From Betaproteobacteria bacterium RIFCSPLOWO2_02_FULL_68_150 (GTDB lineage: Bacteria > Pseudomonadota > Gammaproteobacteria > Burkholderiales > SG8-39): 44,419 bases of DNA. Location: assembly GCA_001771975.1 (NCBI GenBank), contig MERE01000180.1:1-44419 (forward strand), in the 5' to 3' direction. Below, one piece after another: positions 6,956 to 43,652 of this stretch (position 1 is its first letter; each line of letters starts with the position of its first letter). Both the position numbers and the translations under genes were made by a program. Under the pieces are notes generated by a model. That model had not been told where the DNA came from. It did no database searches and saw only the letters and a program-made list of their open reading frames with translations.

Positions 6956-9280
6956 GTGCCAGACAGCAAGACGCGAGCGGGCGCCCAGACGGGCGCGTTG
7001 CCGGAGCCGGGCGGCGCAGGCCGCGCGTCCGGTAAGGGCGGCGACCGCAGACGCCTGAAACTGCTCGAGCTGTTGCTCGACGTTTCGCGCCGCATGGCGC
7101 GTTTCGGCACGCTCGACGAAGTGCTGCACGGGTTGATCGAGATGACGGCGACGGAACTCGACGCCGAGCGCGGCTCGCTGTTCCTCAACGATGCCGCCAC
7201 CGGCGAGCTGTATTCGCGCGTCGCCAAGGGCAAGCTGCGGCGCGAGCTGCGCCTGATGAACAACACCGGCATCGCCGGGCATGTGTTCAGCACCGGTGAG
7301 CCGCTGATCGTGCACGACGCCTATGCCGACGCGCGCTTCAACCGGGCGATCGACGAGCAGACCGGGTTCAAGACGCGCAACATTCTTTGCGTGCCGGTGC
7401 GCACGGTGACGGGCGAGATCATCGGCGTGGTCGAGGCGCTCAACAAGCGCAAGGGCAAGTTCAAGCGGCGCGATCTGGACCTGCTCGAGGCGATGACCGC
7501 GCAGGGCGCGCTCGCGCTGCAGGGCGCGCAGGTGATCGAGCGCATGCAGCAGATCCGCGCCCAGGAGCGCGAATTCGTCGAAGTGGTGTCCGAGGTCACC
7601 GCTGACATCAAGCTCGGGTCGCTGCTGCAGCGCGTGATGGGCGAGGCGACGCGCATGCTGAACGCCGAGCGCTCGACCCTGTTCCTGAACGACGACAAGA
7701 CCGGCGAGCTGTGGTCCGAAGTGAGCCAGGGGCTGGAGTCGATGCAGATCCGGCTGCCGAACAGCGTCGGCATCGCCGGCGCGGTGTTCACGAGCGGAAG
7801 ATCGATCAACATCCCGTATGCCTACGCCGATCTGCGCTTCAACCCGGCGTTCGACCAGAAGACCGGCTACTTCACGCGCTCGGTGCTGTGCGTGCCGATC
7901 GTCAACAAGCAGGGCCGCACGATCGGCGTGACGCAGGTGCTGAACAAGCACGGCGGGCCGTTCAGCGAGGAGGACGAGACGCGGCTGCGCGCGTTTACGG
8001 CGCAGATCTCGATCGCGCTGGAGAACGCGAAGCTCTTCGCCGACGTGCAGAACATGAAGAACTACAGCGACTCGATGCTCGAATCGATGTCGAACGGCGT
8101 CATCACGCTGGACGACACCGGCCGCATCGCGACCTGCAATGCCGCCGGCCTGCGCATCCTGCAGCTGCGCGCGGACGACATCGTCGGCCACCCGGCGGCG
8201 GAATTCTTCGCCGGCGACAATGGCTGGGTGCTCGACAAGTTGAGGCGCGTCGTGGAGACCGGCGAGATCGACGTTTCGGTCGATGCGGCGCTCGCCGTGC
8301 GCACGGAGCGCATTTCCACCAACCTCACGCTGCTGCCGCTGCTCAGCACCGACGCCAAGCGCCTCGGCTCGATGATGCTGATCGAGGACATCAGCAACGA
8401 GAAGCGCCTCAAGTCGACCATGGCGCGCTACATGGACCCGGGCATCGCCGACCAGCTGCTGGCGAGCGGCGCCGAAGCGCTCGGCGGGCAGTCGCTGCTG
8501 GCGACGGTGCTGTTCGCCGACATCCGCAACTTCACCACCTTCAGCGAGCAGCTCGGGCCGCAGGGCACGATCGCCTTCCTGAACGAGTATTTCGAGCTGA
8601 TGGTCGAGTGCATCCAGCGCGAGGGCGGCATGCTCGACAAGTTCATCGGCGACGCCATCATGGCGGGGTTCGGCGTGCCGGTGCCGCGCGAGGACGACGT
8701 CGACCGCGGCGTGCGCGCCGCGATCGCGATGATGCGGGCGCTGCGGGCCTGGAACGAGCGCCGCGCCGCCGAGGCCAAGCCCGCGGTGGACATCGGCATC
8801 GGCCTCAATACCGACCAGGTCGTCTCCGGCAACATCGGCTCGAAGAAGCGCATGGACTTCACCATGATCGGCGACGGCGTCAACCTCGCCTCGCGCCTGG
8901 AATCGGCCTGCAAGCAGTACGGTTCGCACATCCTGGTGAGCGAGTTCACCTACGAGAAGCTGCGCGGCACCTACCGGGCGCGCAAGCTCGACCGCATCGT
9001 GGTCAAGGGCAAGACGCAGCCGGTGGCGGTCCACGAAATCCTCGAGTACCACGACGACGCCTCGTACCCGCAGTTGAGCGAGGCGCTCGGCATCTTCCGC
9101 GACGCGATGAAGAAGTACCGCCAGCGCGAGTTCGCCGCCGCCGCCGGCCTGTTCGAAAAGGTCGTCGCGATCAATCCGCGCGACCGCGCCGCGGCGCTTT
9201 ATGTCGAGCGTTGTGCGCGGCTTGGCGCGAATCCCCCGGGGGAGGATTGGGACGGGGTGTGGCGGCTCGAAGCCAAGTGA
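6956..9280 (+). CDS. GAF-GAF-PAS sensor class III adenylate/guanylate cyclase with a TPR-like C-terminal tail
   Basis: 774 aa, GTG start. Two GAF-like blocks (..ERGSLFLNDAATGELYSRVA..CVPV.. and ..ERSTLFLNDDKTGELWSEVS..CVPI..). PAS-like block (MLESMSNGVITLDDTGRIATCNAAG). Cyclase domain: ATVLFADIRNFTTFSE..LDKFIGDAIMAGFG..IGLNTDQVVSGNIGSKKRMDFTMIGDGVNLASRLE. Confidence 0.9.
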   Translation: MPDSKTRAGAQTGALPEPGGAGRASGKGGDRRRLKLLELLLDVSRRMARFGTLDEVLHGLIEMTATELDAERGSLFLNDAATGELYSRVAKGKLRRELRLMNNTGIAGHVFSTGEPLIVHDAYADARFNRAIDEQTGFKTRNILCVPVRTVTGEIIGVVEALNKRKGKFKRRDLDLLEAMTAQGALALQGAQVIERMQQIRAQEREFVEVVSEVTADIKLGSLLQRVMGEATRMLNAERSTLFLNDDKTGELWSEVSQGLESMQIRLPNSVGIAGAVFTSGRSINIPYAYADLRFNPAFDQKTGYFTRSVLCVPIVNKQGRTIGVTQVLNKHGGPFSEEDETRLRAFTAQISIALENAKLFADVQNMKNYSDSMLESMSNGVITLDDTGRIATCNAAGLRILQLRADDIVGHPAAEFFAGDNGWVLDKLRRVVETGEIDVSVDAALAVRTERISTNLTLLPLLSTDAKRLGSMMLIEDISNEKRLKSTMARYMDPGIADQLLASGAEALGGQSLLATVLFADIRNFTTFSEQLGPQGTIAFLNEYFELMVECIQREGGMLDKFIGDAIMAGFGVPVPREDDVDRGVRAAIAMMRALRAWNERRAAEAKPAVDIGIGLNTDQVVSGNIGSKKRMDFTMIGDGVNLASRLESACKQYGSHILVSEFTYEKLRGTYRARKLDRIVVKGKTQPVAVHEILEYHDDASYPQLSEALGIFRDAMKKYRQREFAAAAGLFEKVVAINPRDRAAALYVERCARLGANPPGEDWDGVWRLEAK

Positions 9281-12715: not shown

Positions 12716-13950
12716 GCAGATCGTATTTCGGCACCGACGGCATCCGCGGCACCGTAGGCGCAGCCCCGATGACACCGGAGGTGGTGCTGCGCCTCGGTTA
12801 CGCTGCCGGCAAGGTGCTCGCCGGCCGCGACGGCCAGCATCCGGCGGTCCTCATCGGCAAGGACACGCGCATCTCCGGCTACATGATCGAGGCGGGGATC
12901 GTGATCAGCGCGTCGCACAACCCCTACCCGGACAACGGCATCAAGTTCTTCTCCGGCGACGGCTACAAGCTGCCCGACGCGGTGGAGGCGGAAATCGAGC
13001 GCGCGCTCGACGCGCCGATGGGCTGCAACGAAGCGGCCAGCCTCGGGCGGGCGCGGCGCATCGACGATGCGCAGGGCCGCTACGTCGAATTCTGCAAGTC
13101 GACCTTTCCGGGCGAGCTCGACCTGAAGGGGATGCGCATCGTGGTCGACTGCGCCCAGGGCGCCGCCTATGACGTGGCGCCGCACGTGTTCCATGAACTC
13201 GGCGCCGATGTCGTGCCGATCGGGGTGGCGCCCGACGGCGTCAACATCAACCAGGCCTTCGGCGCCACCTCGCCGCAGACGCTGCTCGACGAAGTGAAGC
13301 GGCAGCACGCCGACCTGGGGCTCGCGCTCGACGGCGACGGCGACCGCCTCGTGATCGCCGATCGCGAGGGCAGGCTCTACGACGGCGATCAGCTGCTCTA
13401 CGCGATCGTGAAGCACCGGGCGGCAGCCAACCGCATCGCCGGCGTCGCCGGCACGCTGATGACCAATCTCGGCTTCGAGCAGGCGCTTGCCCGCATGCAG
13501 CTGCCGTTCGCACGCGCGCGGGTGGGCGATCGCTACGTGCTCGAGCTGCTGCGGGAGAAGGGCTGGCAGCTGGGCGGAGAGAACTCGGGCCATATCATCT
13601 GCCTGGACAAGCATACGACCGGAGACGGCATCATCTCCGCGCTGCAGGTGCTCACCGCGATGCGCGAGCGCGGCCGCACGCTCGCCGAACTGACCGCGGA
13701 TCTGGTGATGCTCCCGCAGGTGCTGCTCAACGTCGAGGTGCCGCGCGGCTTCGACTGGAAGCAGCATGCGGCGATCGCCGCGGCGCAGTCCCGGGCCGAG
13801 CGTTCGCTCGAGGGCCGCGGCCGGGTCCTGCTGCGGCCCTCGGGCACCGAGCCCGTGCTGCGCGTGATGGTCGAGGGCGAGCCCCGCGAGGCGATCGACG
13901 CGGCCGCCCGGGAGATCGCCGCAGCGGTGCGTCAGGCAACGGGGACTTGA
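12712..13950 (+). CDS. glmM: Phosphoglucosamine mutase, unusually short (in-frame internal deletion relative to canonical GlmM)
   Basis: The start ATG overlaps the folP stop (ATGA 12712..12715). [16 protein letters not shown].., phosphoserine loop [29 protein letters not shown]. It is 412 aa, against 445 aa for E. coli GlmM. Track ORF 12286..13950 is an N-terminal over-extension. Confidence 0.9.
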
Positions 13951-13960
13951 TCGAAATCAA
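13947..13960. promoter_or_regulatory. Perfect FNR/CRP-family palindrome TTGAT-CGAA-ATCAA upstream of frdA
   Basis: Read directly: ggggacTTGATCGAAATCAAattgg. Both half-sites match the FNR consensus TTGAT-N4-ATCAA. It overlaps the glmM stop codon, and its centre is 43.5 nt upstream of the frdA ATG. Confidence 0.6.
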
Positions 13961-13996
13961 ATTGGCCGTGGCTATCTTGCCCAACATGTCGCCACG

Positions 13997-15760
13997 ATGG
14001 AATCAGTCCAGTCCGACGTAGCCATAGTCGGCGCGGGGGGCGCGGGTTTGCGCGCCGCGATCGCGCTGGCGCAGTCCGATCCGAAACTCCGGATCGCCTT
14101 GATCTCGAAGGTCTATCCGATGCGCAGCCACACCTGCGCGGCCGAAGGCGGTGCCGCGGGGGTGATCAAGCCCGACGACAGCCTCGAGCATCATTTCAAC
14201 GACACCGTGGGCGGCGGCGACTGGCTGTGCGACCAGGACGCGGTCGACTATCTGGTGCAGGAGGCGCCCAAGGAGCTGATCCAGCTCGAGCACTGGGGCT
14301 GCCCCTGGAGCCGCGAGCCGGACGGCTCGGTGGCGGTGCGGCCCTTTGGCGGCATGAAGAAGCAGCGTACCTGGTTCGCCGCCGACAAGTCGGGCTTCCA
14401 CATCCTGCACACGCTGTTCCAGACCTCGCTGCAGTTCGCCTCGATCGAGCGCTTCGACGAGTATTACGTCACCGAGCTGCTGGTGCACGAGGGGCGCTGC
14501 GCCGGTGTGGTCGCGATCGAGATGCGCAGCGGCCAGATGCGGCGCTTCGATGCCCGCGCGCTGATCATCGCCGGCGGCGGCGCCGGCCGCATGTTCCCGT
14601 TCACCACCAACGGCGCCATCAAGACCGGCGACGGCATGGCGCTCGCCTACCGCGCCGGTGTCGCGCTGAAGGACATGGAGTTCGTGCAGTACCACCCCAC
14701 CGGGCTGCCGAGCACCGGCACGCTGCTGACCGAGGCCTGCCGCGGCGAAGGCGGCGTGCTGCTGAACAAGAACGGACGCCGCTTCCTGCAGGATTACGGC
14801 ATGGGTCCGGAGACGCCGCTCGGCAAGCCGGTCTTCAAGACGATGGAACTCGGCCCGCGCGACCGCGTCAGCCAGGCGTTCTGGCAGGAGCAGAAAAAAG
14901 GCAACATGATGCCGACGCAATGGGGCGACGCCATGCTGCTCGACATGCGCCATCTCGGCGAGAAGACGATCAACGAGCGGCTGCCGCTGGTGCGCGACAT
15001 GTCGATCAGCTACATGGGCGTCGACCCGGTCACCGACCCGGTGCCGGTGCGGCCGGTGGTGCATTACATGATGGGCGGCATCGACACCGACACGCGCGCA
15101 GCAACGCGCCTGCCGGGGCTGTTCGCCGCCGGCGAATGCGCCTGTGTCAGCATCAACGGCGCCAACCGTCTGGGCTCGAACTCGCTCACCGAGCTGCTGG
15201 TATTCGGGCGGCGCGCGGCGCTGAGCGCGCTGGAGTACGTCAAAGCGGGCGCGGCGCCGGTGAACGAGGGCGCGCGCGCGGCGCTGGCCACTGCGGCGCA
15301 GGGGCGCCTGCGTGAGCTGATGCAAAGGAGCGGCAGCGGCGAAACCGTTGCGGGCTTGCGCAAGGAGATGATGCAGACGATGGAGCAGAACGCGGGCATT
15401 TACCGCACCAGCGAAGGCCTCACCGAGGCCTGCGCCAAGCTCTCCGAGCTGCGCCGGCGCTATGCACGCATCGAGCTGCACGACAAGACCAACGTTTACA
15501 ACACCGACCTGCTGCAGGCGCTCGAGCTGGGCTCGATGCTCGATTGCGCCGAGGCGGTGACGCAGAGCGCGCTGGCGCGCCAGGAGTCGCGCGGCGCGCA
15601 CCAGCGACTCGATTTCACCGCGCGCGACGACGTCAAGTTCCTGCGCCATTCGCTGGCGCTCTACGCGCAGAACGAGCCGCCCCGCATCGACTATCGCGAC
15701 GTCGTCATCACCCGGTCGCAGCCGGGCGTGCGCGACTACTCGGGCGGGGGAGGCAAGTGA
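13997..15760 (+). CDS. frdA: Fumarate reductase flavoprotein subunit
   Basis: 587 aa. Near-colinear with E. coli FrdA as recalled: DVAIVGAGGAGLRAAIA..ISKVYPMRSHTCAAEGG..GGDWLCDQD..HWGCPWSR..RTWFAADKSGFHILHTLFQTSLQF..MEFVQYHPTGLP..CRGEGG..LQDYGMGPETPLG. Confidence 0.95.
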   Translation: MESVQSDVAIVGAGGAGLRAAIALAQSDPKLRIALISKVYPMRSHTCAAEGGAAGVIKPDDSLEHHFNDTVGGGDWLCDQDAVDYLVQEAPKELIQLEHWGCPWSREPDGSVAVRPFGGMKKQRTWFAADKSGFHILHTLFQTSLQFASIERFDEYYVTELLVHEGRCAGVVAIEMRSGQMRRFDARALIIAGGGAGRMFPFTTNGAIKTGDGMALAYRAGVALKDMEFVQYHPTGLPSTGTLLTEACRGEGGVLLNKNGRRFLQDYGMGPETPLGKPVFKTMELGPRDRVSQAFWQEQKKGNMMPTQWGDAMLLDMRHLGEKTINERLPLVRDMSISYMGVDPVTDPVPVRPVVHYMMGGIDTDTRAATRLPGLFAAGECACVSINGANRLGSNSLTELLVFGRRAALSALEYVKAGAAPVNEGARAALATAAQGRLRELMQRSGSGETVAGLRKEMMQTMEQNAGIYRTSEGLTEACAKLSELRRRYARIELHDKTNVYNTDLLQALELGSMLDCAEAVTQSALARQESRGAHQRLDFTARDDVKFLRHSLALYAQNEPPRIDYRDVVITRSQPGVRDYSGGGGK

Positions 15761-16503
15761 TGGGCGAGCGCCAAGTCGAGCTGGAGGTCCTGCGCTACAA
15801 CCCGGAGACCGACCGCGAGCCGCATTTTCAGCGCTATTCGGTCGCCTGCCGGGAAGAGTGGGTGGTGCTGGACGCCCTCAACCACGTCAAGGAGACGCTC
15901 GACCCGACGCTCAGCTACCGCTGGTCGTGCCACATGGCGGTGTGCGGCAGCTGCGGCATGATGGTCAACGGCGAGCCGAAGCTCGCCTGCAAGACCTTCC
16001 TGCGCAACTACCACGGCGTCATCCGCGTCGAGCCATTGCGCCATTTCCCGATCGAGCGGGACCTCGTGACCGTGATCGACGATTTCGTCGCCAAGCTGAC
16101 GCGCGTCAAGCCGTACCTGATTCCCAAGGAACCGAAGTCGGTCGAGGCGGGCGAGTACCGCCAGACGCCGGCGCAGTTGAAGCGCTACAAGCAGTTCACC
16201 CTGTGCATCAACTGCATGCTGTGCTACGCCGCCTGCCCCGAATACGGACTGATCCCGGACTACCTTGGCCCGGCGGCGCTCTCGCTCGCACACCGCTACA
16301 ACCAGGATTCGCGCGACGGCGGCCGCGGGGAGCGGCAGGAGGAGCTCGCGTCGAAGGAGGGCGTGTGGGAGTGCTCGTTCGTCGGCGCGTGCTCGGAAGT
16401 CTGTCCCGAGCACGTCGATCCGGCGGCCGCGATCCAGCAGGTGAAGATCAGGAGCACGCTGGACTGGTACCAGGAGCACTTGATGCCATGGCTGAAGAAA
16501 TGA
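15760..16503 (+). CDS. frdB: Fumarate reductase iron-sulfur subunit
   Basis: The ATG overlaps the frdA stop (TGATG). MGERQVELEVLRYNPETD.., 2Fe-2S cysteines SCHMAVCGSCGMMVNG, and 4Fe/3Fe clusters CINCMLCYAACP and CSFVGACSEVCP. Track ORF 15544..16503 is over-extended. Confidence 0.93.
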   Translation: MGERQVELEVLRYNPETDREPHFQRYSVACREEWVVLDALNHVKETLDPTLSYRWSCHMAVCGSCGMMVNGEPKLACKTFLRNYHGVIRVEPLRHFPIERDLVTVIDDFVAKLTRVKPYLIPKEPKSVEAGEYRQTPAQLKRYKQFTLCINCMLCYAACPEYGLIPDYLGPAALSLAHRYNQDSRDGGRGERQEELASKEGVWECSFVGACSEVCPEHVDPAAAIQQVKIRSTLDWYQEHLMPWLKK

Positions 16504-16889
16504 ACGGCAAGCCGTACGTACGCCCGATCACCTCGGAGTGGATCTTCCGGCACCCGCGCTACCTGCGCTACATGACGCGCGAATTTTCATGCCTCTTCAT
16601 CGGCGGCTACACGCTGCTGCTGATAGCGGGCCTGAAGAGTCTTTCGGAAGGCCGCGCAGCCTACGACGCATTCCTCGAGGCTCTCAAGAGCCCGGCGAGC
16701 ATCGTGTTCCAGGTCGTTGCGCTCGCGTTCGCCGCTTATCACAGCGTGACCTGGTTCGCGCTCACGCCGAAGGCGCTGCCGCTGCAGCTGGGCGAGGAGT
16801 TCGTGTCCGATGGCGCGATTTCCGGGGCGCACTACGTGGTCTGGGCCGTGTTGTCGCTGGGCATCTGGGTCCTTGCCGGAGCGTTCTGA
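16500..16889 (+). CDS. frdC: Fumarate reductase membrane anchor subunit C
   Basis: MNGKPYVRPITSEWIFRHPRYLRYMTREFS.. parallels E. coli FrdC ([29 protein letters not shown]). Three TM helices. ATGA overlap with the frdB stop. An alternative ATG lies at 16488. Confidence 0.85.
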   Translation: MNGKPYVRPITSEWIFRHPRYLRYMTREFSCLFIGGYTLLLIAGLKSLSEGRAAYDAFLEALKSPASIVFQVVALAFAAYHSVTWFALTPKALPLQLGEEFVSDGAISGAHYVVWAVLSLGIWVLAGAF

Positions 16890-16891
16890 CC

Positions 16892-17233
16892 ATGGCGAAA
16901 TCGAACAAGCCAATCGTTTGGGGTCCCTTCGCCGCGGGCGGGACGGTGACCGCTTTCGTGACTCCGGCGCTCATCGTGCTGACGCTGCTGGTGGCGCTCG
17001 GGGCGACCCCCGAGCTGCTGCAATACGACGCCCTGCTGGCGTTCATGCGGCATGGACTGGTCGAGGTGGTGGCCGCAGGCGTGGTCTTCGTTTCGCTCTG
17101 GAGCGCCGCGCACCGCCTGCGCATCACGTGCTACGACCTGGGCGTGAGGGCCGACACGCTGGTGGCGACAGTGGTGTACGCCGTGGCGCTCGCCGGCACC
17201 GCCGCTGCGATCGTGTACCTGTCGAGGCTTTAG
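16892..17233 (+). CDS. frdD: Fumarate reductase membrane anchor subunit D
   Basis: 113 aa. MAKSNKPIVWGPFAAGGTVTAFVTPALIVL.. parallels E. coli FrdD ([25 protein letters not shown]). Three TM helices. Confidence 0.85.
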   Translation: MAKSNKPIVWGPFAAGGTVTAFVTPALIVLTLLVALGATPELLQYDALLAFMRHGLVEVVAAGVVFVSLWSAAHRLRITCYDLGVRADTLVATVVYAVALAGTAAAIVYLSRL

Positions 17234-17237
17234 GGTG

Positions 17238-17265
17238 TTGACAGGTCGGGGCGCCGGCCTAAACT
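17238..17265 (+). promoter_or_regulatory. Sigma70-like promoter: TTGACA - 16 nt - TAAACT
   Basis: A consensus -35 (17238..17243) and a 4/6 -10 (17260..17265) sit in the 60-nt gap after frdD. They are followed by the GAAGGAGG SD and the ATG at 17301. Confidence 0.5.
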
Positions 17266-17300
17266 TGGCGCGCACAACTTTCTGAAGGAGGGTGCGGGAG

Positions 17301-18062
17301 ATGAATCCACCGCCCGTGGTCACGCGTGAGGTTGCGCGCGAAGAGCGTTTCAGCCTGGTCTGGACGAGGGAACTCAATCAGGTGTTCGCGGACGTCGCGC
17401 CGTATTACGACCGCGCCAACTACGTCGCCAGCCTTGGCCTGTGGGACTGGTTCCTGAGCAAGTTCATGGCCACCGTGGACATCCGCCCCGGCGAGCGGGT
17501 GCTCGACGTGTGCGCGGGAACCAATGCGATCGGCATTGCGCTGCTCAAGCGCGAGCCGACGCTCGAGGTGCACGCCATCGACCGCAGCCGGGAAATGCAG
17601 GAGGTCGGCCGCCAGCGCGCCGAGGCGCTGGGTTTGCGCATCCGCAGCACCATCGAGGACGTGCACGCGCTGCCGTTCCCCGACAACCATTTCGACGTCG
17701 TGACGCTGCAGTTCGCCTCGCGCCACCTGCGGGTGAAGCGGGTCTGGGGCGAGATGCTGCGCGTGCTCAAACCCGGCGGGCGCTTCTACCACTGCGACAT
17801 GCTGCGCCCCGCGAACCGCAGCGTGGAGACCCTGTATTACGGCTATCTGCGGTTCTGCCTCTGGTTCACCGGCTTCGTGTTCCGCAGCGGCCAGGCGGCG
17901 CTCAACTGCAAGCAGTACTTCATCGACGCGCTGCAGATGTTCTATTCGGCGGAGGAACTGTCGCACGTGCTGGAGGAACTGGGGTACTGCAACGTCACCT
18001 CGAGGACCGTGTTCTCCGGCATGATGGGCTTTCACCGCGCGGTCAAGCCGGGACAGCCCTAG
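17301..18062 (+). CDS. UbiE/MenG-family class I SAM-dependent methyltransferase-fold protein (candidate quinone-modifying enzyme)
   Basis: Colinear with UbiE/MenG: VFADVAPYYDRANYVASLGLWDWF..GERVLDVCAGTNAIGIAL..AIDRSREM..LPFPDNHFDVVTLQFASRHL..LKPGGRF. ATG 17301 is preferred over the track's GTG 17292 because GGAGG lies 8-9 nt upstream of the ATG. Confidence 0.85.
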   Translation: MNPPPVVTREVAREERFSLVWTRELNQVFADVAPYYDRANYVASLGLWDWFLSKFMATVDIRPGERVLDVCAGTNAIGIALLKREPTLEVHAIDRSREMQEVGRQRAEALGLRIRSTIEDVHALPFPDNHFDVVTLQFASRHLRVKRVWGEMLRVLKPGGRFYHCDMLRPANRSVETLYYGYLRFCLWFTGFVFRSGQAALNCKQYFIDALQMFYSAEELSHVLEELGYCNVTSRTVFSGMMGFHRAVKPGQP

Positions 18063-18074
18063 CCCGGGCTTCGC

Positions 18075-18716
18075 ATGGACCGCGCCGGGGCGCTGGCCGG
18101 CCTCAACCAGCGCCTCCTGGAGGCGTTCAGCCGCCGCACCACCGGCGCGCTGCGCGAAGTCCTTGCGCTGCGCGTGGCGCTGCCGCACATCGAGCCGTTT
18201 CTCGCCTTGAACGTCGCCAAGGAAGTGAAGAAGGACGCGCTCCTGATCAGGAGCGCGGCGCAGGCCGCGGCGGCGCCCGACGCGGCGCTGGCGCGCAGCC
18301 TGCTCGAGGAGGCGCGCGCCATCGACCGCGATTTCCTCGGCGACGTGGCGCGCTTTCCGGTGCGCATCGAGATTCCCTACGCGCGCATCGAGCCACTGCG
18401 CCTGCGGCGCATCGGGCGCGGGCTTGAACTGGCGCACCTGATCATCGCGGGCTGGCGCGGCGGACGCAAGCTGCGCGAGCTGCTGCCGCGCGACGCTCTC
18501 GAGCACCGCCTGCGCGAGCTGCTCGAGCTCTACGCCGAGGAAACGCAGGCGCTCAGCCACTCGGTCCAGCTGCCTGGCCCGCTCGCGCTGCTGCGCGAGC
18601 GCCTGGCGCGTGGCCTGCTGCGCGTGATGCGCGAGGCGGCGGGGCAGGTGTCGGCGCAGGCGGCACGCGCTGTGCACCGGCCGCGCCCGCGGGCGCTGCA
18701 GGAGCGCCCGGCGTGA
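18075..18716 (+). CDS. Hypothetical helical protein (213 aa), no family recognised
   Basis: Starts 12 nt after the methyltransferase stop. Strong G/C third-position bias in this frame. L/A/R/E-rich with no TM segment. The competing 472-aa minus-strand ORF also runs antisense across the methyltransferase and looks like a shadow ORF. Confidence 0.55.
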   Translation: MDRAGALAGLNQRLLEAFSRRTTGALREVLALRVALPHIEPFLALNVAKEVKKDALLIRSAAQAAAAPDAALARSLLEEARAIDRDFLGDVARFPVRIEIPYARIEPLRLRRIGRGLELAHLIIAGWRGGRKLRELLPRDALEHRLRELLELYAEETQALSHSVQLPGPLALLRERLARGLLRVMREAAGQVSAQAARAVHRPRPRALQERPA

Positions 18717-18868
18717 GGGAGGCGCAGACGCTGACGCTCGATCGCGACCTCGCCCGCTGCGGCACGACGGCGGCGCGCTTCGGGCGCGCCACGGACTTCA
18801 ACGGCGGCACGGGCGGAGACGCGGCGCCCCTCGCGCCGCCGCCCGATGTGCCAGAGGCGACCGCGTGA
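18713..18868 (+). CDS. Possible 51-aa ORF bridging the hypothetical gene and marR
   Basis: GTG 18713 overlaps the preceding stop (GTGA), and its own TGA overlaps the marR GTG start (GTGA 18865..18868). 47 of its 51 sense codons end in G/C. Translation VREAQTLTLDRDLARCGTTAARFGRATDFNGGTGGDAAPLAPPPDVPEATA. No homology recognised. Confidence 0.25.
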   Translation: MREAQTLTLDRDLARCGTTAARFGRATDFNGGTGGDAAPLAPPPDVPEATA

Positions 18869-19341
18869 CCCGCGCGCTCCCGCCCGCCGACCCCCGGTGG
18901 CCCGAGCGCACCTTCAGTCACCGGCTGATGCGGCTGGTGAACCTGATCGCAAAGCCTTTTTTCGCGCGCTACGCCGAGGAGACCGACCTGTCGATCAACG
19001 AGTGGCGCGTCCTCATGCTGCTCGCCGCGCATCCCGGCCTCACCGCGAGCGACATCGCCGAGCGCAGCGGGATGCTCCTCATGAACGTCAGCCGCGCCGT
19101 GCGGCGCCTTGCACGCATGCGCCGCGTGCAGCGCCGGCGCGACCCTGCCGATGCGCGCCGTGCCCTGCTCAGGCTGACCGCGCGCGGCGAGGCGATCTTC
19201 GCGCGCATCGCGCCGCAGGCCCGGCGCAGCGAGGAAAGCGTGCGCGGGCAGCTCAGCACCGCCGAGGCCGCGGAGTTCAGTCGCCTGCTCGATAAGCTGC
19301 TCGCCGGCCTGCGATCGCAGCGCGGCAACGGCCGTGCTTGA
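18865..19341 (+). CDS. MarR-family transcriptional regulator
   Basis: 158 aa. A winged-HTH core typical of MarR: LSINEWRVLMLLAAHPGLTASDIAERSGMLLMNVSRAVRRLARMRRVQRRRDPADARRALLRLTARGEAIF. Confidence 0.88.
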   Translation: MTRALPPADPRWPERTFSHRLMRLVNLIAKPFFARYAEETDLSINEWRVLMLLAAHPGLTASDIAERSGMLLMNVSRAVRRLARMRRVQRRRDPADARRALLRLTARGEAIFARIAPQARRSEESVRGQLSTAEAAEFSRLLDKLLAGLRSQRGNGRA

Positions 19342-19402: not shown

Positions 19403-20122
19403 GTGGCTGATGCCCCGATGATTGCCCGCCGCGTTCCGCTCGCGCCGATGCAGCGCATGGCCGCCGAGCACCTCGCGCACAGCCTGCGCGAGAGCGTGCC
19501 GGTGTCGATCCACGGCGCAGCGGACGCCGAGGCGCTGGTCGCGCTGCGCGCGCGACTGAATGCCGACGCCTCGCGCGCCGGCCGGCCGCGCGTCACGCTC
19601 ACGCACCTGCTGGTGAAGGCGGTGGCGCAGGCGCTGCGCGCCCACGAGCACCTGAATGCCACGCTCGAGGGCAAGGTGCTGTGTGTCTACGCAGACGTCA
19701 ACATCGGTGTCGCGCTCGCGCTGGCCAACGGCGGCCTCGTCGTGCCGGTGATCCGCGGCGCGGATCGCCTGACGCTCGACGAAGTCGCCGCGATGGCCGC
19801 GGAACAGGAAGCGCGCGCCGCGGCCGGCAAGCTCCAGCTCGCCGACGTCCAGGGTGCGACCTTCACGATCTCGAACGGCGGCATGGTGCCGAGCGTGCTC
19901 TGGACGACGCCAATCGTGCCGCGCGGTCAGGCGGCGATCCTCGGCATCGGCGCAATGCACCAAGCAGCGGTCGTGCGCGAAGGTGCGGTGGTCGCGCGCC
20001 GCCTGCTGCCGACCAGCCTGACGTTCGATCATCGCCTGGTCAACGGCGTGCCGGCGGCGCGCTTTCTCGAAGGGGTGCACCGCCTCGTCGCCGAGGCCGA
20101 GCGCATCGAACTGGGCATCTGA
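19403..20122 (+). CDS. 2-oxoacid dehydrogenase E2 acyltransferase, catalytic domain only (no lipoyl or subunit-binding domain)
   Basis: 239 aa. It begins directly at the catalytic-domain entry motif RRVPLAPMQRM. GLVVPVIRGADRLTLDEVA, GATFTISNGGM, and the catalytic DHRLVNG are present. Confidence 0.88.
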   Translation: MADAPMIARRVPLAPMQRMAAEHLAHSLRESVPVSIHGAADAEALVALRARLNADASRAGRPRVTLTHLLVKAVAQALRAHEHLNATLEGKVLCVYADVNIGVALALANGGLVVPVIRGADRLTLDEVAAMAAEQEARAAAGKLQLADVQGATFTISNGGMVPSVLWTTPIVPRGQAAILGIGAMHQAAVVREGAVVARRLLPTSLTFDHRLVNGVPAARFLEGVHRLVAEAERIELGI

Positions 20123-20137
20123 CTGCAAGGAGAACTC

Positions 20138-20380
20138 ATGCTTCTGGAGATCCGCGTGCCGGAGATGGGCAACGACGCCAAGGAGGCGATTCTGGTCGCC
20201 TGGCACAGACAGCCGGGCGACGCCGTGGCGCAGGGCGAGCCGCTCGCCGACGTGATGACGGACAAGGTCAACGTGGAGATCGTCAGCCCCGCGGCGGGCA
20301 CGCTGAAGGAGACGCGCGCCGCGCCCGACGAGACGGTGCCGGTGGGTGCCGTGATCGCGATGCTGGAGGTCGCCGAATGA
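20138..20380 (+). CDS. Free-standing lipoyl-attachment domain protein (80 aa)
   Basis: Own AAGGAG SD. MLLEIRVPEMG..VAWHRQPGDAVAQGEPLADVMTDKVNVEIVSPAAGTL..VPVGAVIAMLEV. The TDK lipoyl-lysine motif sits at the hairpin position. It is not the AMKM biotinyl motif. Confidence 0.85.
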   Translation: MLLEIRVPEMGNDAKEAILVAWHRQPGDAVAQGEPLADVMTDKVNVEIVSPAAGTLKETRAAPDETVPVGAVIAMLEVAE

Positions 20381-21372
20381 ATGCGCAATTCGCCGAAGCG
20401 CGGGCGCGCGTCGCGGAAGACGGCGCGCTCCTGCGGAGCATGTACGAGCTGATGCTGCTGACACGCGAGATCGATCGCGTCGCGGGCAAGGCCGACGGCC
20501 ACTGGCACGCCTGCGAGGGTGAGGAAGCGGTGATCGCCGCCTGCTACAGCGGGCTGCGCCCGGACGATTTCGCCGTGCCGCACTATCGCGGCATGCTGCC
20601 CGCGTCGGTCGCGCGCGGTGCCGACTTGCGCGCGCTCCTCGCCGGGCTCGCGGGCAAGACGACGAGTCACAGCGGCGGGCGCTACCGCTCGGACGTCTGC
20701 GGGCCGATCGAGCACCGGGTGATCGGCCTGTACTCCGGTGCGCTCGGACCGACGCTCTCCTACGCCGCGGGCACCGCGCTCGCGGCGAAGCTCGATCGGC
20801 GCGATGCAGTGACGATCGCGGTATTCGGCGACGGCACGTCCAACCGCGGAGATTTTCATGAAGCGCTGAACCTTGCCGCGGTGCTGAAGCTCGGCGTGGT
20901 CTATGTCTGCCAGAACAACCAGTTCGCGATCTCGACGCCTGCCGCGCGCGGCGTGGGCGCGCGCTCGATCGCGGACCGCGCGCCGGGCTACGGCATACCG
21001 GGTGTCGCGGCGGACGGCAACGACGCGATCGGGCTGCGCGCCGCGGTCGAGATCGCGATCGAGCGCGCGCGCCGCGGCGACGGACCGACGCTCATCGAGG
21101 CGCTCACCTATCGCATCTCCGGACATCTCGTCGCGGATGCCGCGGACTATCGCCCGGCGGAGGACGTGGCGGCGTGGCGCTCGCGCGATCCGCTCGCGAG
21201 GCTGCAGCGCCACCTGCTGGAGTGCGGCCTGCTGAAGCGGGACGAGGACGAGCGCCTCGCGCGCGAAACGCGCGAACGCGTGGACGCGGCGATGGCGCAG
21301 GCGCAGGCGGACCCGGACCCCGGCGCCGACGCGCTCGGACTGCAAGCGGTTTTCGCAGCGGCGCGGTCATGA
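20377..21372 (+). CDS. TPP-dependent dehydrogenase E1 alpha subunit, divergent copy 1
   Basis: ATGA overlap with the lipoyl gene. The TPP motif is present: AVFGDGTSNRGDFHEALNLAAVLKLGVVYVCQNNQFAIS..YRISGH. Several otherwise conserved E1alpha motifs are absent (see findings). Track ORF 19681..21372 is over-extended. Confidence 0.85.
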   Translation: MNAQFAEARARVAEDGALLRSMYELMLLTREIDRVAGKADGHWHACEGEEAVIAACYSGLRPDDFAVPHYRGMLPASVARGADLRALLAGLAGKTTSHSGGRYRSDVCGPIEHRVIGLYSGALGPTLSYAAGTALAAKLDRRDAVTIAVFGDGTSNRGDFHEALNLAAVLKLGVVYVCQNNQFAISTPAARGVGARSIADRAPGYGIPGVAADGNDAIGLRAAVEIAIERARRGDGPTLIEALTYRISGHLVADAADYRPAEDVAAWRSRDPLARLQRHLLECGLLKRDEDERLARETRERVDAAMAQAQADPDPGADALGLQAVFAAARS

Positions 21373-22346
21373 TCCGCCAGACGATGCAGGAGGCCATCGT
21401 CGCCGGCATCGCCGAGGAAATGCGGCGCGATGCGGACGTCTTCATCATGGGCCTCGACATTGGCCGCTTCGGCGGCCCGCTCAACTCGTGCAAGGGATTG
21501 TGGGAGGAGTTCGGCGCCACCGGCCGGGTGATCGATACGCCGATCTCCGAGGGCGCAATCGTCGGCGCGGGCGTGGGTGCCGCGCTCGCCGGCAAGCGGC
21601 CGATCGTGGACATCATGTTCCTCGAGTACCTGCCGCTCGTCATCCAGCAGCTCGGCTGCGACGGTGGCGCGATGCACTACTACTCCGCAGGCAAGGCGCG
21701 CGTGCCGCTCGTCGTGCGCGCAAAGTACGGCGTCGGGCCGTATCACGGCCATCCTTACGACTTTCACGCGTGGCTCATGCAGACCCCCGGCGTGAAGATC
21801 GCAGTGCCGGCCACCGCGCGCGATGCGAAGGGCCTGATGAAGGCGGCGATCCGCGACGACAGTCCGGTGCTCTTCATGGAGCACATGGCGCTCTACCATG
21901 GCCTGCGCGACGCGATTCCGGAGGAGGACTACGTCGTGCCGCTCGGCGTCGCGGAGGTGAAGCGCGCAGGGCGCGACGTCACCGTCATTGCGTCGGCCGC
22001 GATGGTGCGCAGGGCGCTCGCCGCGGCGCAGGCGCTCGCGAAAGAGGGGATCGAGATCGAAGTCGTGGACCTGCGCAGCATCGTGCCGCTGGACGAGGCG
22101 ACGATCCTCGACTCGGTGCGCAAGACCGGCCGCGCGCTCGTCGTGCAGGAGACGGTGTGCTTCGGCGGCTCGACCGCCGAGGTCGCCGCGCTGATCGCCG
22201 AGCGGTCGTTCCGCGACCTGAAGGCTCCGGTGCGACGCCTTGGCACGGCGTACGTTCCCGTGCCTTTCGCGCGCAGCCTCGAGAAGGCCGCCGTCCCCGA
22301 CGACGCCGCGATCGTCGCGGCGGCAAGGGATCTCGTGTCGCAGTAG
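21369..22346 (+). CDS. Dehydrogenase E1 beta subunit, divergent copy 1
   Basis: ATGA overlap. MIRQTMQEAIVAGIAEEMRRDADVFIMGLDIG..RVIDTPISEGAIVG..PGVKIAVPATARDAKGLMKAAIRDDSPVLFMEH..VDLRSIVPLD. Confidence 0.87.
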   Translation: MIRQTMQEAIVAGIAEEMRRDADVFIMGLDIGRFGGPLNSCKGLWEEFGATGRVIDTPISEGAIVGAGVGAALAGKRPIVDIMFLEYLPLVIQQLGCDGGAMHYYSAGKARVPLVVRAKYGVGPYHGHPYDFHAWLMQTPGVKIAVPATARDAKGLMKAAIRDDSPVLFMEHMALYHGLRDAIPEEDYVVPLGVAEVKRAGRDVTVIASAAMVRRALAAAQALAKEGIEIEVVDLRSIVPLDEATILDSVRKTGRALVVQETVCFGGSTAEVAALIAERSFRDLKAPVRRLGTAYVPVPFARSLEKAAVPDDAAIVAAARDLVSQ

Positions 22347-22354
22347 AGCGCCCA

Positions 22355-23374
22355 TTGGTCACACTTTCGCTCGACGAGGGCCTTCGGCTGTATCGCACGA
22401 TGGCGCGCATCCGCGCCTTCGAGAACGCGGCGGAAGAGGCTTCCCGGGGCGGCGTTTCGGCCTTTGGCGCTGCGCTTTCCGCCAGCGTCAGGGTACGCGG
22501 ACCGCTGCATCTGTCGACCGGGCAGGAGGCGGTGGCGGCGGGCGTCTGCGCGCAGTTGACCACGGCCGACCTCATCACTTCGACGCACCGCGGCCACGGC
22601 CACACCATCGCCAAGGGTGCCTCGGTCGAGCGCATGATGGGCGAGCTCTTCGGCAAGGTGAGCGGCTGCAACGGCGGCAAGGGCGGCTCGATGCACATCG
22701 CCGACTTCTCGGTCGGGATGCTGGGCGCGAACGGCGTGGTTGCCGCGGGAATTCCGATCGCGGTGGGCGCCGCGCATGCGCTGAAACTCCGGCAGCGCAA
22801 TGCGCTCGTCGCGTGCTTTTTCGGCGACGGCGCGATCAATCGCGGTCCGTTTCTCGAAGGACTCAACTGGGCGGCGGTCCACGCGCTGCCCGTGCTCTTC
22901 GTCTGCGAGGACAATCGCTGGTCGGCGACGACCGCGACCGGCGCCATGACCGCGGGCGACGGGGCGCTGGCGCGTGCTGCCGGCATCGGTGTGCCGGGCG
23001 AGCGGGTGGACGGCAACGACGTCTTCGCGGTGCACGCTGCCGCAGCAGAACTGGTGGCCCAGGTCCGCGCCGGGCAAGGGCCGCGATTGCTGCATGCGAT
23101 CACGTACCGCGTGAAGGGCCACGTTTCGGTGGATCCGGCCACCTATCGCGACGGCGAGGAAGTGGACCGCGCGCTCCAGGACGATCCGATTCCGGCGGCC
23201 GCCGCGCGGCTGAGGGCGGCCGGCGTCGCAGCCGAAGCGCTCGCGCAGATCGCGCTGGAAGCGGAGCGGGAAGTGGCTGCGGCGCTTGCCGCCGCCTCGG
23301 CGGCGGCGTGGCCGGACCGGGCAGCGTCGTATTCGGACATCCAGGACACCGGGAGCGACCGTTGGCTTGTCTGA
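22355..23374 (+). CDS. TPP-dependent dehydrogenase E1 alpha subunit, canonical copy 2 (acetoin/pyruvate/BCKA-type)
   Basis: TTG start is inferred, because the conserved LSLDEGLRLYRTMARIRAFE lies upstream of the first ATG. LSTGQEAVAAG, THRGHGH, GKGGSMH, GDGAINRG..CEDNRW, YRVKGHVSVDP. Confidence 0.86.
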   Translation: MVTLSLDEGLRLYRTMARIRAFENAAEEASRGGVSAFGAALSASVRVRGPLHLSTGQEAVAAGVCAQLTTADLITSTHRGHGHTIAKGASVERMMGELFGKVSGCNGGKGGSMHIADFSVGMLGANGVVAAGIPIAVGAAHALKLRQRNALVACFFGDGAINRGPFLEGLNWAAVHALPVLFVCEDNRWSATTATGAMTAGDGALARAAGIGVPGERVDGNDVFAVHAAAAELVAQVRAGQGPRLLHAITYRVKGHVSVDPATYRDGEEVDRALQDDPIPAAAARLRAAGVAAEALAQIALEAEREVAAALAAASAAAWPDRAASYSDIQDTGSDRWLV

Positions 23375-24309
23375 GCTACGCGCAGGCGGGCTGCCTCGCG
23401 CTGGAACGGGCCATGGCGGCCGATCCTGCGGTCGTGGTGCTCGGCGAAGACGTCGGTCGCGGCGGCATCTTCGGCCAGTACCGCGGGCTGCAGCAGAAGT
23501 TCGGCACGGCGCGCGTCCTGGACACGCCGATCTCGGAGGCGACGATCATGGGCGCGGCGGTGGGCATGGCGCTCGCCGGGCTGAAGCCCGTCGTCGAAAT
23601 GCGCGTGGTGGACTTCGCGCTCTGCGCGATGGACGAAATCGTCAACCAGGCGGCGAAGGCGCGCTACATGTTCGGCGGACAGGGGCGCGTGCCGCTGGTG
23701 GCGCGGCTGCCGATCGGCATCTGGACCGGCTCGGCGGCGCAGCACTCGCAGAGCCTCGAAGCGTGGTTCGCGCACGTGCCGGGCCTGGTCGTCGTCACGC
23801 CCTCGAATCCGCAGGACAACTGCTCGCTGCTCGCCGCGTCGCTCGAATGCGGCGATCCGGTGATCTACATGGAGCACAAGGAATTGTGGACGGTGGAGGC
23901 CGAGGTTGATCCGACCGCGAAAGTGCCGCTCGGCCGCGCCAGCGTGCTGCGCGCCGGCGCAGACGTGACGCTCGTCACCTGGGCGCGCACGGTACAGCCG
24001 GCGCTCGAGGCCGCAACGGCCGCCGCCGCACGCGGCGTGTCGGCGGAAGTCATCGACCTTCGCACGCTATGGCCCTGGGATCGCGAGACCGTGCTGGCCT
24101 CGGCCGCGAGGACGCGCCGGCTGGTGGTCGCGCACGAGGCGGTGCGGGTCGCGGGCTTCGGTGCGGAGATCGCGGCCACGGTGGCCGAGGAACTCGGCAT
24201 ACCGGTGCGACGCGTCGGCGGCGCGCGCATCCCGGTCGGCTACTCGAAGGTGCTCGAAGATGCCGCACGCATCAGCGCGGCGGCGATCCTGGAGTCCCTG
24301 CTGCAATGA
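23362..24309 (+). CDS. Dehydrogenase E1 beta subunit, canonical copy 2
   Basis: TTG start 6 nt after GGGAG, with a 13-nt overlap onto E1alpha-2. LSYAQAGCLALERAMAADPAVVVLGEDVG..RVLDTPISEATIMG..QHSQSLEAWFAHVPGLVVVTPSNPQD..IDLRTLWPWD. Confidence 0.86.
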   Translation: MACLSYAQAGCLALERAMAADPAVVVLGEDVGRGGIFGQYRGLQQKFGTARVLDTPISEATIMGAAVGMALAGLKPVVEMRVVDFALCAMDEIVNQAAKARYMFGGQGRVPLVARLPIGIWTGSAAQHSQSLEAWFAHVPGLVVVTPSNPQDNCSLLAASLECGDPVIYMEHKELWTVEAEVDPTAKVPLGRASVLRAGADVTLVTWARTVQPALEAATAAAARGVSAEVIDLRTLWPWDRETVLASAARTRRLVVAHEAVRVAGFGAEIAATVAEELGIPVRRVGGARIPVGYSKVLEDAARISAAAILESLLQ

Positions 24310-24764
24310 CGCCGAAGCGTACGCCGGAGGACTGGATCGCCGCGCTCGGCATGGCGCTGCTGGCGCTCATCACCATGGCCAACGTGGTGGTCCGTTATCT
24401 GACCGACCAGTCGTTTGCGTGGACCGAGGAATTTTCAGTGTTCCTGCTGGTGCTGACGACCATGGCGGGAGCGTCCGCGGCGGCGCTGCGCGAGCGGCAC
24501 ATCCGCATCGAGTTCTTCCTCGATCGCGGGCCGCCCGCGCAGCGCCGCGCGCTGGCGGCGGGCGGGACGGCCCTGGCCGTGGTTTTCTTTCTCGCCTTCG
24601 CGGTGCTCACCGGCCGCATGGCGTGGGATGACTTTCGCTACGGCGAGACGACGATGGGCGTCGGTTTGCCGCGCTGGTGGTATACGGGGTGGGTGCCCGC
24701 GCTGTCACTCGTCATTGCGCTGCGCACCGCGCAGGCGCTGCGGCGGCTCCTGCGAAGCGCATGA
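24306..24764 (+). CDS. TRAP transporter small permease (DctQ-type)
   Basis: 152 aa. ATGA overlap with the E1beta-2 stop. Four TM helices. LITMANVVVRYLTDQSFAWTEEFSVFLLV is a typical DctQ signature. Confidence 0.85.
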   Translation: MTPKRTPEDWIAALGMALLALITMANVVVRYLTDQSFAWTEEFSVFLLVLTTMAGASAAALRERHIRIEFFLDRGPPAQRRALAAGGTALAVVFFLAFAVLTGRMAWDDFRYGETTMGVGLPRWWYTGWVPALSLVIALRTAQALRRLLRSA

Positions 24765-26059
24765 TCGGCACGCTGCTCTTCGCGATCTTTCTCGTCCTCA
24801 TGTTCGGCGGCGTGCCGATCGGCGTCGCGCTCGGCATCGGCGGCATGATTTCGATCGCGCTGGCGAACGCGGACGCGCAGTATTTCGGGCTGCTCGCGGC
24901 GCCGCAGAATTTCTACGCCAGCATCGCCAAATATCCGCTGCTTGCGCTGCCGATGTTCGTGCTGGTCGGCTCGATCTTCGACCGCTCGGGCGTGGCGCAG
25001 CGCCTCGTCACCTTTGCCGTCGCGGTCGTGGGGCGCGGTCCCGGCATGCTGCCGATGGTGGCGATTCTCGTCGCCATGATCCTCGGGGGAATCTCCGGCT
25101 CCGGACCGGCGAACGCCGCCGCCGTGGGCGGCGTCATGATCGCCGCCATGTCGCGGGCCGGCTACCCCGCGGCGTTTTCCGCTTCCATCGTCGGCGCGGC
25201 CGCGGCCACCGACATCCTGATTCCGCCTTCGATCGCGTTCGTCGTCTACAGCGTGATGGTCGCGGGGGCTTCGGTTCCGGCGATGTTTGCCGCGGGGATG
25301 GTTCCCGGCGTGCTCGCCGGGATCGCGCTGATCGCGCCGGCGGTCTGGCTTTCGCGCCGCAACGGCTTTGGCAGCCACGAAGCCGACGAGCCGCGCCCCC
25401 GGTTCTGGCGCAGCCTGCGCGAAGCGGCGTGGGGAATCGCCGCGCCGGTGCTGATCCTGGGCGGCATGCGGCTGGGCTGGTTCACGCCGACCGAGGCCGC
25501 GGTGGTGGCGGTGTTCTACGGGCTTTTCGTCGGGATGGCGGTCCACGGCACGATCGGCTGGAAGGATCTCTTCGACATCTTCCGCGACGCGGGAGAGATC
25601 TCCGCCGTGATCATGATCGTGCTGGGCCTGGCGGGGATCTTCGCCTACTCGGTGAATACGCTCGGGCTTGCCGATCCGCTGGTGAAGGCGGTCACCGGGA
25701 GCGGGCTCGGCAGCACCGGGGCGCTGCTCGCGGTGTTCGCGGTGCTGCTTTTCGTCGGGGTGTTCCTGGATGGCGTCTCGATCTTCCTGATTTTCATTCC
25801 GCTTCTCACGCCGCTCATGAACGCCTTCGGCTGGGACGTGGTATGGTTTGGCGTCGTGCTGACGATGGCCGTGGCGATCGGGCAGATCACGCCGCCGATG
25901 GCCGTGAACCTGATGGTCGCCTGCCGGATGGCCGGCGTGTCGATGGAAAGTACGCTGCCCTGGGTCGGGTGGCTGGTGGCGAGCTTCGTGCTCGCCGCGT
26001 TCGCCGTGATTTTCGCGCCGCCGCTCGCGCTCTGGCTGCCGCGGGCGCTCGGCTACTAG
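24761..26059 (+). CDS. TRAP transporter large permease (DctM-type)
   Basis: 432 aa from the ATG that overlaps the DctQ stop (ATGA). MIGTLLFAIFLVLMFGGVPIGVALGIGG..SGSGPANAAAVG.., polytopic. The track ORF starts 84 nt too early. Confidence 0.92.
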   Translation: MIGTLLFAIFLVLMFGGVPIGVALGIGGMISIALANADAQYFGLLAAPQNFYASIAKYPLLALPMFVLVGSIFDRSGVAQRLVTFAVAVVGRGPGMLPMVAILVAMILGGISGSGPANAAAVGGVMIAAMSRAGYPAAFSASIVGAAAATDILIPPSIAFVVYSVMVAGASVPAMFAAGMVPGVLAGIALIAPAVWLSRRNGFGSHEADEPRPRFWRSLREAAWGIAAPVLILGGMRLGWFTPTEAAVVAVFYGLFVGMAVHGTIGWKDLFDIFRDAGEISAVIMIVLGLAGIFAYSVNTLGLADPLVKAVTGSGLGSTGALLAVFAVLLFVGVFLDGVSIFLIFIPLLTPLMNAFGWDVVWFGVVLTMAVAIGQITPPMAVNLMVACRMAGVSMESTLPWVGWLVASFVLAAFAVIFAPPLALWLPRALGY

Positions 26060-26089
26060 AATGCGTCAACTCAACCGGGAGGCACCACC

Positions 26090-37250: not shown

Positions 37251-37257
37251 AGCCGCG

Positions 37258-37746: not shown

Positions 37747-37758
37747 GACCTGCCGCCC

Positions 37759-38657: not shown

Positions 38658-38700
38658 CCCGGTGGCCGGTGCGCTGGCCTGGATCGACAAGATGATCGCC

Positions 38701-42135: not shown

Positions 42136-42143
42136 ACCACGCC

Positions 42144-43631: not shown

Positions 43632-43652
43632 TCCCGCCGCGTGCGGGGGTGC

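Follow-up and report, generated by a model that had tools for sequence, protein, structure and literature searches.

In the assembly of Betaproteobacteria bacterium RIFCSPLOWO2_02_FULL_68_150 (GCA_001771975.1; Burkholderiales, SG8-39), a stretch of 44,419 nucleotides (contig MERE01000180.1, positions 1 to 44,419; hereafter, the window) carries an E. coli-type quinol:fumarate reductase operon, frdABCD. The operon is directly followed by a gene for a 253-amino-acid (aa) UbiE/Coq5-like S-adenosylmethionine (SAM)-dependent enzyme and then by a gene for a 213-aa conserved protein of no known family. An E. coli-type fumarate reductase (Frd) requires a quinol of lower potential than ubiquinol, and the solutions known to us in Pseudomonadota are menaquinone and the rhodoquinone made by RquA. 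This lineage carries Frd without either of them and has, in the slot that RquA takes elsewhere, a private UbiE-like enzyme with its partner. We regard it as an even call that the two genes form an FNR-linked, Frd-attached quinone-tailoring module analogous to RquA in ubiquinone-only Burkholderiales. A fuller version is put forward tentatively, as plausible but somewhat short of even: enzyme and partner may constitute a two-protein pathway to an undescribed low-potential quinone, or to rhodoquinone without RquA, that serves Frd, with the module and RquA replacing each other at one and the same position of related frd operons.

A UbiE-like protein outside the RquA, UbiE, and MenG models

The 253-aa protein is encoded by a reading frame that begins with an ATG preceded by AAGGAGG. 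Its match to PF01209 exceeded the gathering threshold of 20.1 bits and ran from end to end (residues 27–252 on profile positions 8–233), which confirmed the colinearity with UbiE/MenG described in an earlier note on this DNA. Among solved structures, yeast Coq5 (PDB 4obw) was the best match of the family profile, over the full length (E 2.4e-20). Profile–profile comparison of the family gave a score of 229 and 32% identity over 220 columns with UbiE, and a score of 68 and 21% identity over 183 columns with RquA. The family hidden Markov model (HMM) reached median scores of 106 bits on UbiE versus 11 bits on RquA, and the RquA HMM scored a median of about 7 bits (6.7) on the window's protein family versus 51 bits on UbiE. 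UbiE is thus the nearest family by profile comparison, a similarity that appears unambiguous despite doubt about the deep tree.

A tree of 78 proteins from the window's protein family, UbiE, and RquA was built to place the enzyme. The window's family formed a single clade with support of 99 in the Shimodaira–Hasegawa-like approximate likelihood ratio test (SH-aLRT), and no member of it was placed inside RquA, which formed a clade of its own (99), split deeply in two. In the free tree, the window's clade joined UbiE (support 87) on a long stem of 1.72 changes per site. Where UbiE has the GGTGD loop, GLRN, and LEFS, the clade has invariant motifs of its own, namely LDVCAGTN, ASRH, and HCDMLRP, respectively. 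Motif I VLDVCAGTNAIG and the post-motif II segment TLQFASRHL were both present as the earlier note had quoted them and show little or no variation in the family; at their core, the loop reads CAGTNA and post-motif II reads FASRH, both without variation. The SAM-site residues D69, D94, and D120 are likewise invariant, as is R141, which aligns with the arginine of the UbiE FGlRN motif and is followed by H142. The protein shares with UbiE, MenG, and Coq5 the fold family, the length, the end-to-end alignment, the SAM-binding aspartates, and the arginine of the RN position; it differs from them in its linkage to frd and to a private partner, in its location outside ubi and men clusters, and in its separate long-stem clade. 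Most probably, the enzyme binds SAM and represents a separate and uncharacterised clade within the UbiE/Coq5 quinone-methyltransferase superfamily.

RquA converts ubiquinone to rhodoquinone with SAM as the amino donor and requires Mn2+. In our analysis, a protein counted as a true RquA if it reached 175 bits or more on NCBIfam NF038261, a curated equivalog model. A search of the whole genome with this model (E up to 10) returned nothing at the frd locus, and the best match in the genome was the housekeeping UbiE with 31.6 bits; NF038261 was also missing from the 25 best NCBIfam matches of the 253-aa protein. As a positive control, the true RquA of a related genome (locus L093) scored 313.5 bits. 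The hallmark of RquA lies in motif I, where Gln replaces Asp/Glu and Val replaces Gly (PMC7813818). In these columns, all 27 of the collected true RquA sequences read lQvAcvYG, and the window's protein reads VLDVCAGTN, with Asp and Gly kept; the Gln and Val/Tyr hallmark is absent from it and from its clade. The missing NF038261 match, the missing hallmark, and the placement outside the RquA clade led us to reject an RquA identity, and with it the suggestion of an RquA-like enzyme in the earlier note. The resemblance to RquA of Rhodospirillum rubrum consists of the slot next to frdABCD, a class I SAM fold, an altered motif I, and ubiquinone-producing hosts within Pseudomonadota; the model match, the hallmark, the low profile identity, and the partner protein set the two apart, RquA being sufficient on its own (PMC9814641).

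A housekeeping UbiE is encoded separately in the same genome, on contig C176, where the gene product passes the UbiE subfamily model TIGR01934 (242.6 bits; cut-off 158.35). The window's protein stays under this cut-off (131.7 bits) and far under those of NF001240–NF001244 and TIGR02752. It was therefore not taken for the housekeeping UbiE, being under every UbiE/MenG equivalog; the earlier note had named clustering with a sole ubiE of the genome as one outcome that would count against its proposal, and a second ubiE was found instead. MpqE (methyl-plastoquinone methyltransferase, NF052510) is comparable in being a UbiE-family member recruited for an unusual benzoquinone, and the window's protein scored 107.8 bits on its model, far under the cut-off of 335. 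With 224.9 bits, the housekeeping UbiE outscored it on the same model, which argues against any special kinship with MpqE.

The quinone genes were screened in the window's own genome (87% complete) and in two sister genomes, G013 and G122 (both 100% complete). MenD (TIGR00173), MenA (TIGR00751), and MqnA/D (PF02621) were not found above cut-off in any of the three, and MenD was absent from 7/7 sampled genomes of the host's taxonomic family as well as from the window's own. With no menaquinone or futalosine pathway found there to supply a substrate, a MenG role was rejected, and the dedicated demethylmenaquinone methyltransferase offered as the other suggestion of the earlier note fell with it. 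UbiA was present in all three genomes. Two U32-peptidase-family genes in tandem, in the arrangement expected of UbiU/UbiV for ubiquinone synthesis without oxygen, were found in the window's genome (C104:5137-6683) and also in G013, G122, and G072, but not in G251. The window's genome further holds a separate SdhC-type complex II besides Frd. Taken together, UbiA, the U32 pair, and the two complexes without men or mqn genes make the cell look like a ubiquinone-only facultative anaerobe. Full-length MenA-like prenyltransferases of the UbiA family, at about 80 bits on TIGR00751 (cut-off 102), were seen in G013 (C5:565965-566786; L161:6918-7853) and G122 (C52:36934-37785). They are flanked by ABC and ZnuA transporter genes in hosts otherwise without men and mqn, and gave no lead.

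The ESM Atlas, the names of cluster members, and word-index protein searches returned only generic names, such as "class I SAM-dependent methyltransferase", or UbiE as an automatically assigned label, and these name-based searches led to no R. rubrum or other named RquA. A metal site built from the clade-invariant His and Cys residues was considered and dropped, since ordinary methyltransferases, YcgJ among them, share the A-x-x-H and D-x-x-x-P-E motifs.

Linkage to frdABCD, the partner protein, and complementary distribution with RquA

To describe the genomic context, 80 loci from species-representative genomes (49–91% identity) were compared. The order frdABCD, enzyme gene, 213-aa gene was kept in about 50 of the 80; in Sterolibacterium, the enzyme gene and the partner gene precede frdABCD; and in about 30 loci the enzyme gene has no adjacent frd. 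True RquA genes occupy the same slots elsewhere in the order, after frdD in L093, L094, L096, and L099; in L106, L110, and L113 they precede frdA.

The distribution was then assessed in 301 genomes of the order, in which two unpublished genomes (G026 and G294) count in the totals only. The results showed that the enzyme gene is rare, with 11 carriers. FrdD was present in 17 genomes, comprising 10 with a true RquA, six with the window's gene, and one with neither; no genome had both. The window's gene takes the slot that RquA has next to frdABCD and occurs only in sampled genomes that lack RquA. All six genomes with Frd and the gene belong to the host's taxonomic family, in which five of the seven sampled genomes had both and two had neither. 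In the FrdA tree, 26 operons linked to the window's gene and two operons linked to RquA (genus g39) formed a single clade (SH-aLRT 93), and the window and g39 were 81% identical in FrdA and 79–81% identical in FrdB. In our reading, one of the two partners has taken the other's place within related frd operons. Such a swap of RquA and the gene pair is the strongest hint that both do the same job for the cell.

RquA genes beside complex II genes have already been catalogued (Stairs 2018, PMC5953543), and the supplement of that study lists RquA adjoining complex II in metagenome-assembled genomes (MAGs) and in Accumulibacter (PMC5953543). The order of Pfam matches, with generic methyltransferase domains before PF01209, and a different downstream gene suggest that the proteins listed there may be true RquA; six MAG names from the loci analysed here were searched for in that supplement, and none occurred. 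RquA beside frd is known; no description of a UbiE-like clade that takes this slot together with a private partner was found in the literature searched.

The gene of the 213-aa partner starts 12 nt past the stop codon of the enzyme gene. It follows the enzyme gene in about 50 of the 80 loci, and also where frd is not adjacent (L035, L049, L054, L064–L067, L129, and L130). Its profile matched nine of the 301 genomes, all of them among the 11 carriers of the enzyme gene, and the family is small, since 1.84 billion proteins contained 197 clusters of it at 50% identity. Neither Pfam nor NCBIfam models matched the protein, and a Pfam search at E up to 10 on 26 family members gave scattered single matches only. 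The AlphaFold2 model is all-alpha, with seven helices and a predicted local distance difference test (pLDDT) score of 93.8. Foldseek returned nothing in the PDB for this model at E up to 0.001, and in a wide VIA-align search, the best Z score was 7.0 at a root-mean-square deviation of 8.6, which is in the noise range of helical bundles; several isoprenoid-synthase folds at Z 5–6 were not counted as matches. The invariant residues are N46, K49, E50, K53, D54, D84, F87, R109, R112, Y153, and E156. This set suggests that the partner may have a polar binding site rather than being a mere scaffold. Complex prediction of enzyme and partner scored 0.00 in both runs and carries no weight for or against binding. 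In one partner homologue, P0414 (504 aa), the predicted protein extends into a B12-binding domain (PF02310, residues 230–345), either as a true fusion or because the gene was called through.

The frd operon, its upstream FNR-type box, and flanking genes

The matches of the four frd genes (Table 1) agree with the E. coli-type frdABCD of the earlier note. All four subunits, including both small membrane anchors, are present in operon order, and FrdA, FrdB, and FrdD score above their equivalog cut-offs; the position of frdC, which scores under its cut-off, is kept in about 50 related loci. The FNR-type box is the only perfect one in the window, where 0.01 would be expected, and its centre lies 43.5 bp 5' of the frdA ATG. 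Of 37 related loci, 18 have an FNR-like box with at most one mismatch 5' of frdA, frequently near −43. Such boxes were also found 5' of the enzyme gene in loci where it is the first gene of the operon or is on its own (L052, L056, L058, L061, L072, L076, and L077). The box is predicted from the consensus, and its distance fits an FNR class II site only with a leaderless or nearly leaderless frdA transcript. No Shine–Dalgarno sequence precedes the frdA ATG, and the box spacing of about −43 recurs in nine related loci.

The earlier note had also given the enzyme gene a near-consensus promoter of its own. A sigma-70-like site, TTGACA-16-TAAACT, does lie in the 67-bp spacer between frdD and the gene and is the sole such site in positions 13500–19000 (0.4 expected). 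Its hexamers are kept in the three nearest relatives (L008–L010), and a similar site occurs in L036 and L047. As a match to the consensus, this part of the claim stood for the window and its closest relatives; it did not extend to the family, in which the gap between frdD and the gene is just 13–22 bp in 29 of 46 loci and the promoter-like site is absent there, implying that the gene is co-transcribed with frd and that an own promoter is no general feature.

Table 1. Features of the frd locus in the window
Feature	Position	Strand	Basis
FNR-type box TTGATCGAAATCAA	13947-13960	.	perfect TTGAT-N4-ATCAA match; candidate site
frdA, quinol:fumarate reductase flavoprotein subunit	13997-15760	+	NF006686 941.8 bits (cut-off 854); PF00890 and PF02910
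frdB, iron-sulfur subunit	15760-16503	+	NF009051 370.7 bits (cut-off 333)
frdC, membrane anchor subunit C	16500-16889	+	NF003445 87.9 bits, E 6.2e-25, under cut-off 143
frdD, membrane anchor subunit D	16892-17233	+	NF003977 68.9 bits (cut-off 60); PF02313
Sigma-70-like promoter site TTGACA-16-TAAACT	17238-17265	+	10/12 consensus positions; consensus match only
253-aa UbiE/Coq5-like SAM-dependent enzyme, unnamed clade	17301-18062	+	PF01209 110.3 bits, full length
213-aa all-alpha conserved protein, no known family	18075-18716	+	start relative to the enzyme gene as given in the text

The 5' flank of frd consists of rlmE, ftsH, folP, and a phosphoglucosamine-mutase-type gene, and 5' of rlmE-ftsH-folP, positions 6956–9280 encode a large sensor protein that combines two GAF domains with a PAS domain and an adenylate/guanylate cyclase domain. 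On the 3' side, a MarR gene is followed by 2-oxoacid dehydrogenase genes. A 51-codon open reading frame (ORF) and the MarR-family gene (18865–19341; PF12802, PF01047) lie with overlapping stop and start codons at 18713–19341, 3' of the partner gene; neither is conserved across the 80 related loci. In the 2-oxoacid dehydrogenase cluster (19403–24309), the E2 ORF matches the catalytic domain only (239 aa), and two separate ORFs for E1 components (19681–21372 and 21488–23374) have long N-terminal stretches without a match, their gene starts being uncertain. A 655-aa ORF at 24628–26595 is without a Pfam match. The AT skew is strongly negative at 24001–26000 (−0.28) and at 36001–44000 (−0.15 to −0.24), and the G+C content is constant. 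Outside the window, a complete frdABCD was noted at L179 (G165:C1:1996000-2006000), with ftsK/mipA-type genes on one side and lolA/rarA-type genes on the other; no gene for a candidate source of its quinol was found in that genome.

Proposed role and alternative explanations

At low oxygen, the module would modify ubiquinone or a late ubiquinone precursor and so yield a quinol open to oxidation by FrdABCD. Its role would equal that of RquA in related bacteria, exerted by a different enzyme and probably through different chemistry. Ring C-methylation is the most likely reaction, given that the Coq5-type SAM site and the catalytic arginine are kept and that a histidine follows this arginine. The FGlRN motif of UbiE, with which R141 aligns, is presumably where Arg201 of Coq5 lies. 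Arg201 is the proposed general base of Coq5, and CouO, an aromatic C-methyltransferase, has a His-Arg pair at the superposed site (PMC5289526). From the invariant R141-H142 pair, the SAM-site aspartates, and this comparison with Coq5 and CouO, the residue pattern favours real methyl transfer to a quinol ring over an amino transfer of the RquA type. The general proposal of the earlier note, a quinone-tailoring enzyme dedicated to Frd, thus gained from the synteny, the FNR boxes, and the RquA-complementary distribution, and the two specific forms in which it had been put, MenG and an RquA-like enzyme, did not hold.

Several observations weigh against this proposal. Since the ring of ubiquinone offers no free carbon, a C-methylation would need a precursor, for example demethoxy-ubiquinol. 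Neither RquA nor a gene of the window's clade nor MenD was found in G165, which has Frd, and two carriers of the enzyme gene, G067 and G076, are missing the partner. Four of the 11 carriers (G025, G174, G258, and G076) have MenD and lack FrdD, which implies that the module is exclusive neither to Frd nor to ubiquinone-only cells; G025 and G174 are closed genomes, perhaps of isolates. The pair in G025 is surrounded by nadE, nosL, a gene for a ccoI-like ATPase, and hemN, a setting that is anaerobic or microaerobic but unrelated to fumarate. The Frd carriers all belong to one taxonomic family, and the complementary pattern rests on few independent lineages and is no statistical proof. No cultured carrier with a recorded quinone profile was found. 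Finally, a tree constrained to join the window's protein family to RquA was not rejected (p-AU of the approximately unbiased test, 0.65) and was 5.4 log-likelihood units better than the free tree, with long branches involved. The deep placement of the clade is therefore insecure, and a sister relation to RquA is neither shown nor rejected.

This last result bears on the possibility that rhodoquinone is made after all, by a very divergent or convergent relative of RquA that transfers the SAM amino group to ubiquinone, perhaps aided by the partner. Besides the constrained tree, the genomic slot of RquA, the complete lack of co-occurrence with RquA in the 301 genomes, and a D-x-x-R-P motif after the fourth strand, found in both families where UbiE has LEFS, are in keeping with it. 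We nevertheless consider it unlikely in view of the empty NF038261 search at the locus, set against the score of a true RquA, the RquA HMM scoring lower on the clade than on UbiE itself, and a motif I that departs from the one shared by all collected RquA sequences; RquA, moreover, works without a partner (PMC9814641). A UbiE isoenzyme that does not depend on oxygen, which would perform the ordinary C-methylation of the ubiquinone pathway while FNR is active, would agree with UbiE being the nearest family, with the conserved catalytic arginine and SAM-binding acidic residues, and with the UbiU/V-like genes for anaerobic ubiquinone synthesis in the genome. The long stem with its own invariant CAGTN, ASRH, and HCDM motifs, the scores under TIGR01934 and all equivalog cut-offs, the rarity of the gene and, within the host's taxonomic family, its presence only alongside Frd, and the dedicated partner speak against such an isoenzyme, which has in our view a small though real chance of being correct.

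A methyltransferase acting on something other than a quinone, either another small molecule or a protein, for example in Frd maturation, would reduce the link with frd to co-regulation. The function is predicted from sequence, class I methyltransferases switch substrate easily, and the roughly 30 loci without adjacent frd, together with the nosL, hemN, and ccoI-like context in G025, would suit this explanation. It appears improbable given the full-length kinship, including the N-terminal cap region, with the quinol methylases UbiE and Coq5, and the RquA swap inside related operons would be hard to explain otherwise. The E. coli-type Frd uses menaquinol in E. coli, and a dedicated MenG that supplies menaquinol to Frd would be in line with this, with the collinearity with UbiE/MenG, with the MenD of the four carriers in other families, and with the MenA-like prenyltransferases of the two sister genomes. 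With no MenD, above-cut-off MenA, or MqnA/D in the own and both sister genomes, and no MenD in any of the seven genomes of the family, we judge this explanation very improbable. In G025, where men genes are present, a separate MenG-like gene (TIGR01934, 245.9 bits) sits directly beside menA, about 10 kb from menD and far from the gene of the window's type.

Recent surveys infer the quinone repertoire from the genes of the known routes alone (PMC11707229, PMC13386864). The lineage with the frd-linked module is abundant in soil and groundwater metagenomes, from which more than 100 protein clusters at at least 79% identity were returned. If the quinone-tailoring module is real, whether it leads to a new quinone or is another way of making rhodoquinone, what genomes predict about the anaerobic respiration of these bacteria would change, and the known quinone-tailoring reactions would gain a member. 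It would also offer enzymologists a natural comparison, with the UbiE scaffold recruited twice for the same physiological need. The finding hints at an undescribed quinone supply for anaerobic fumarate respiration.

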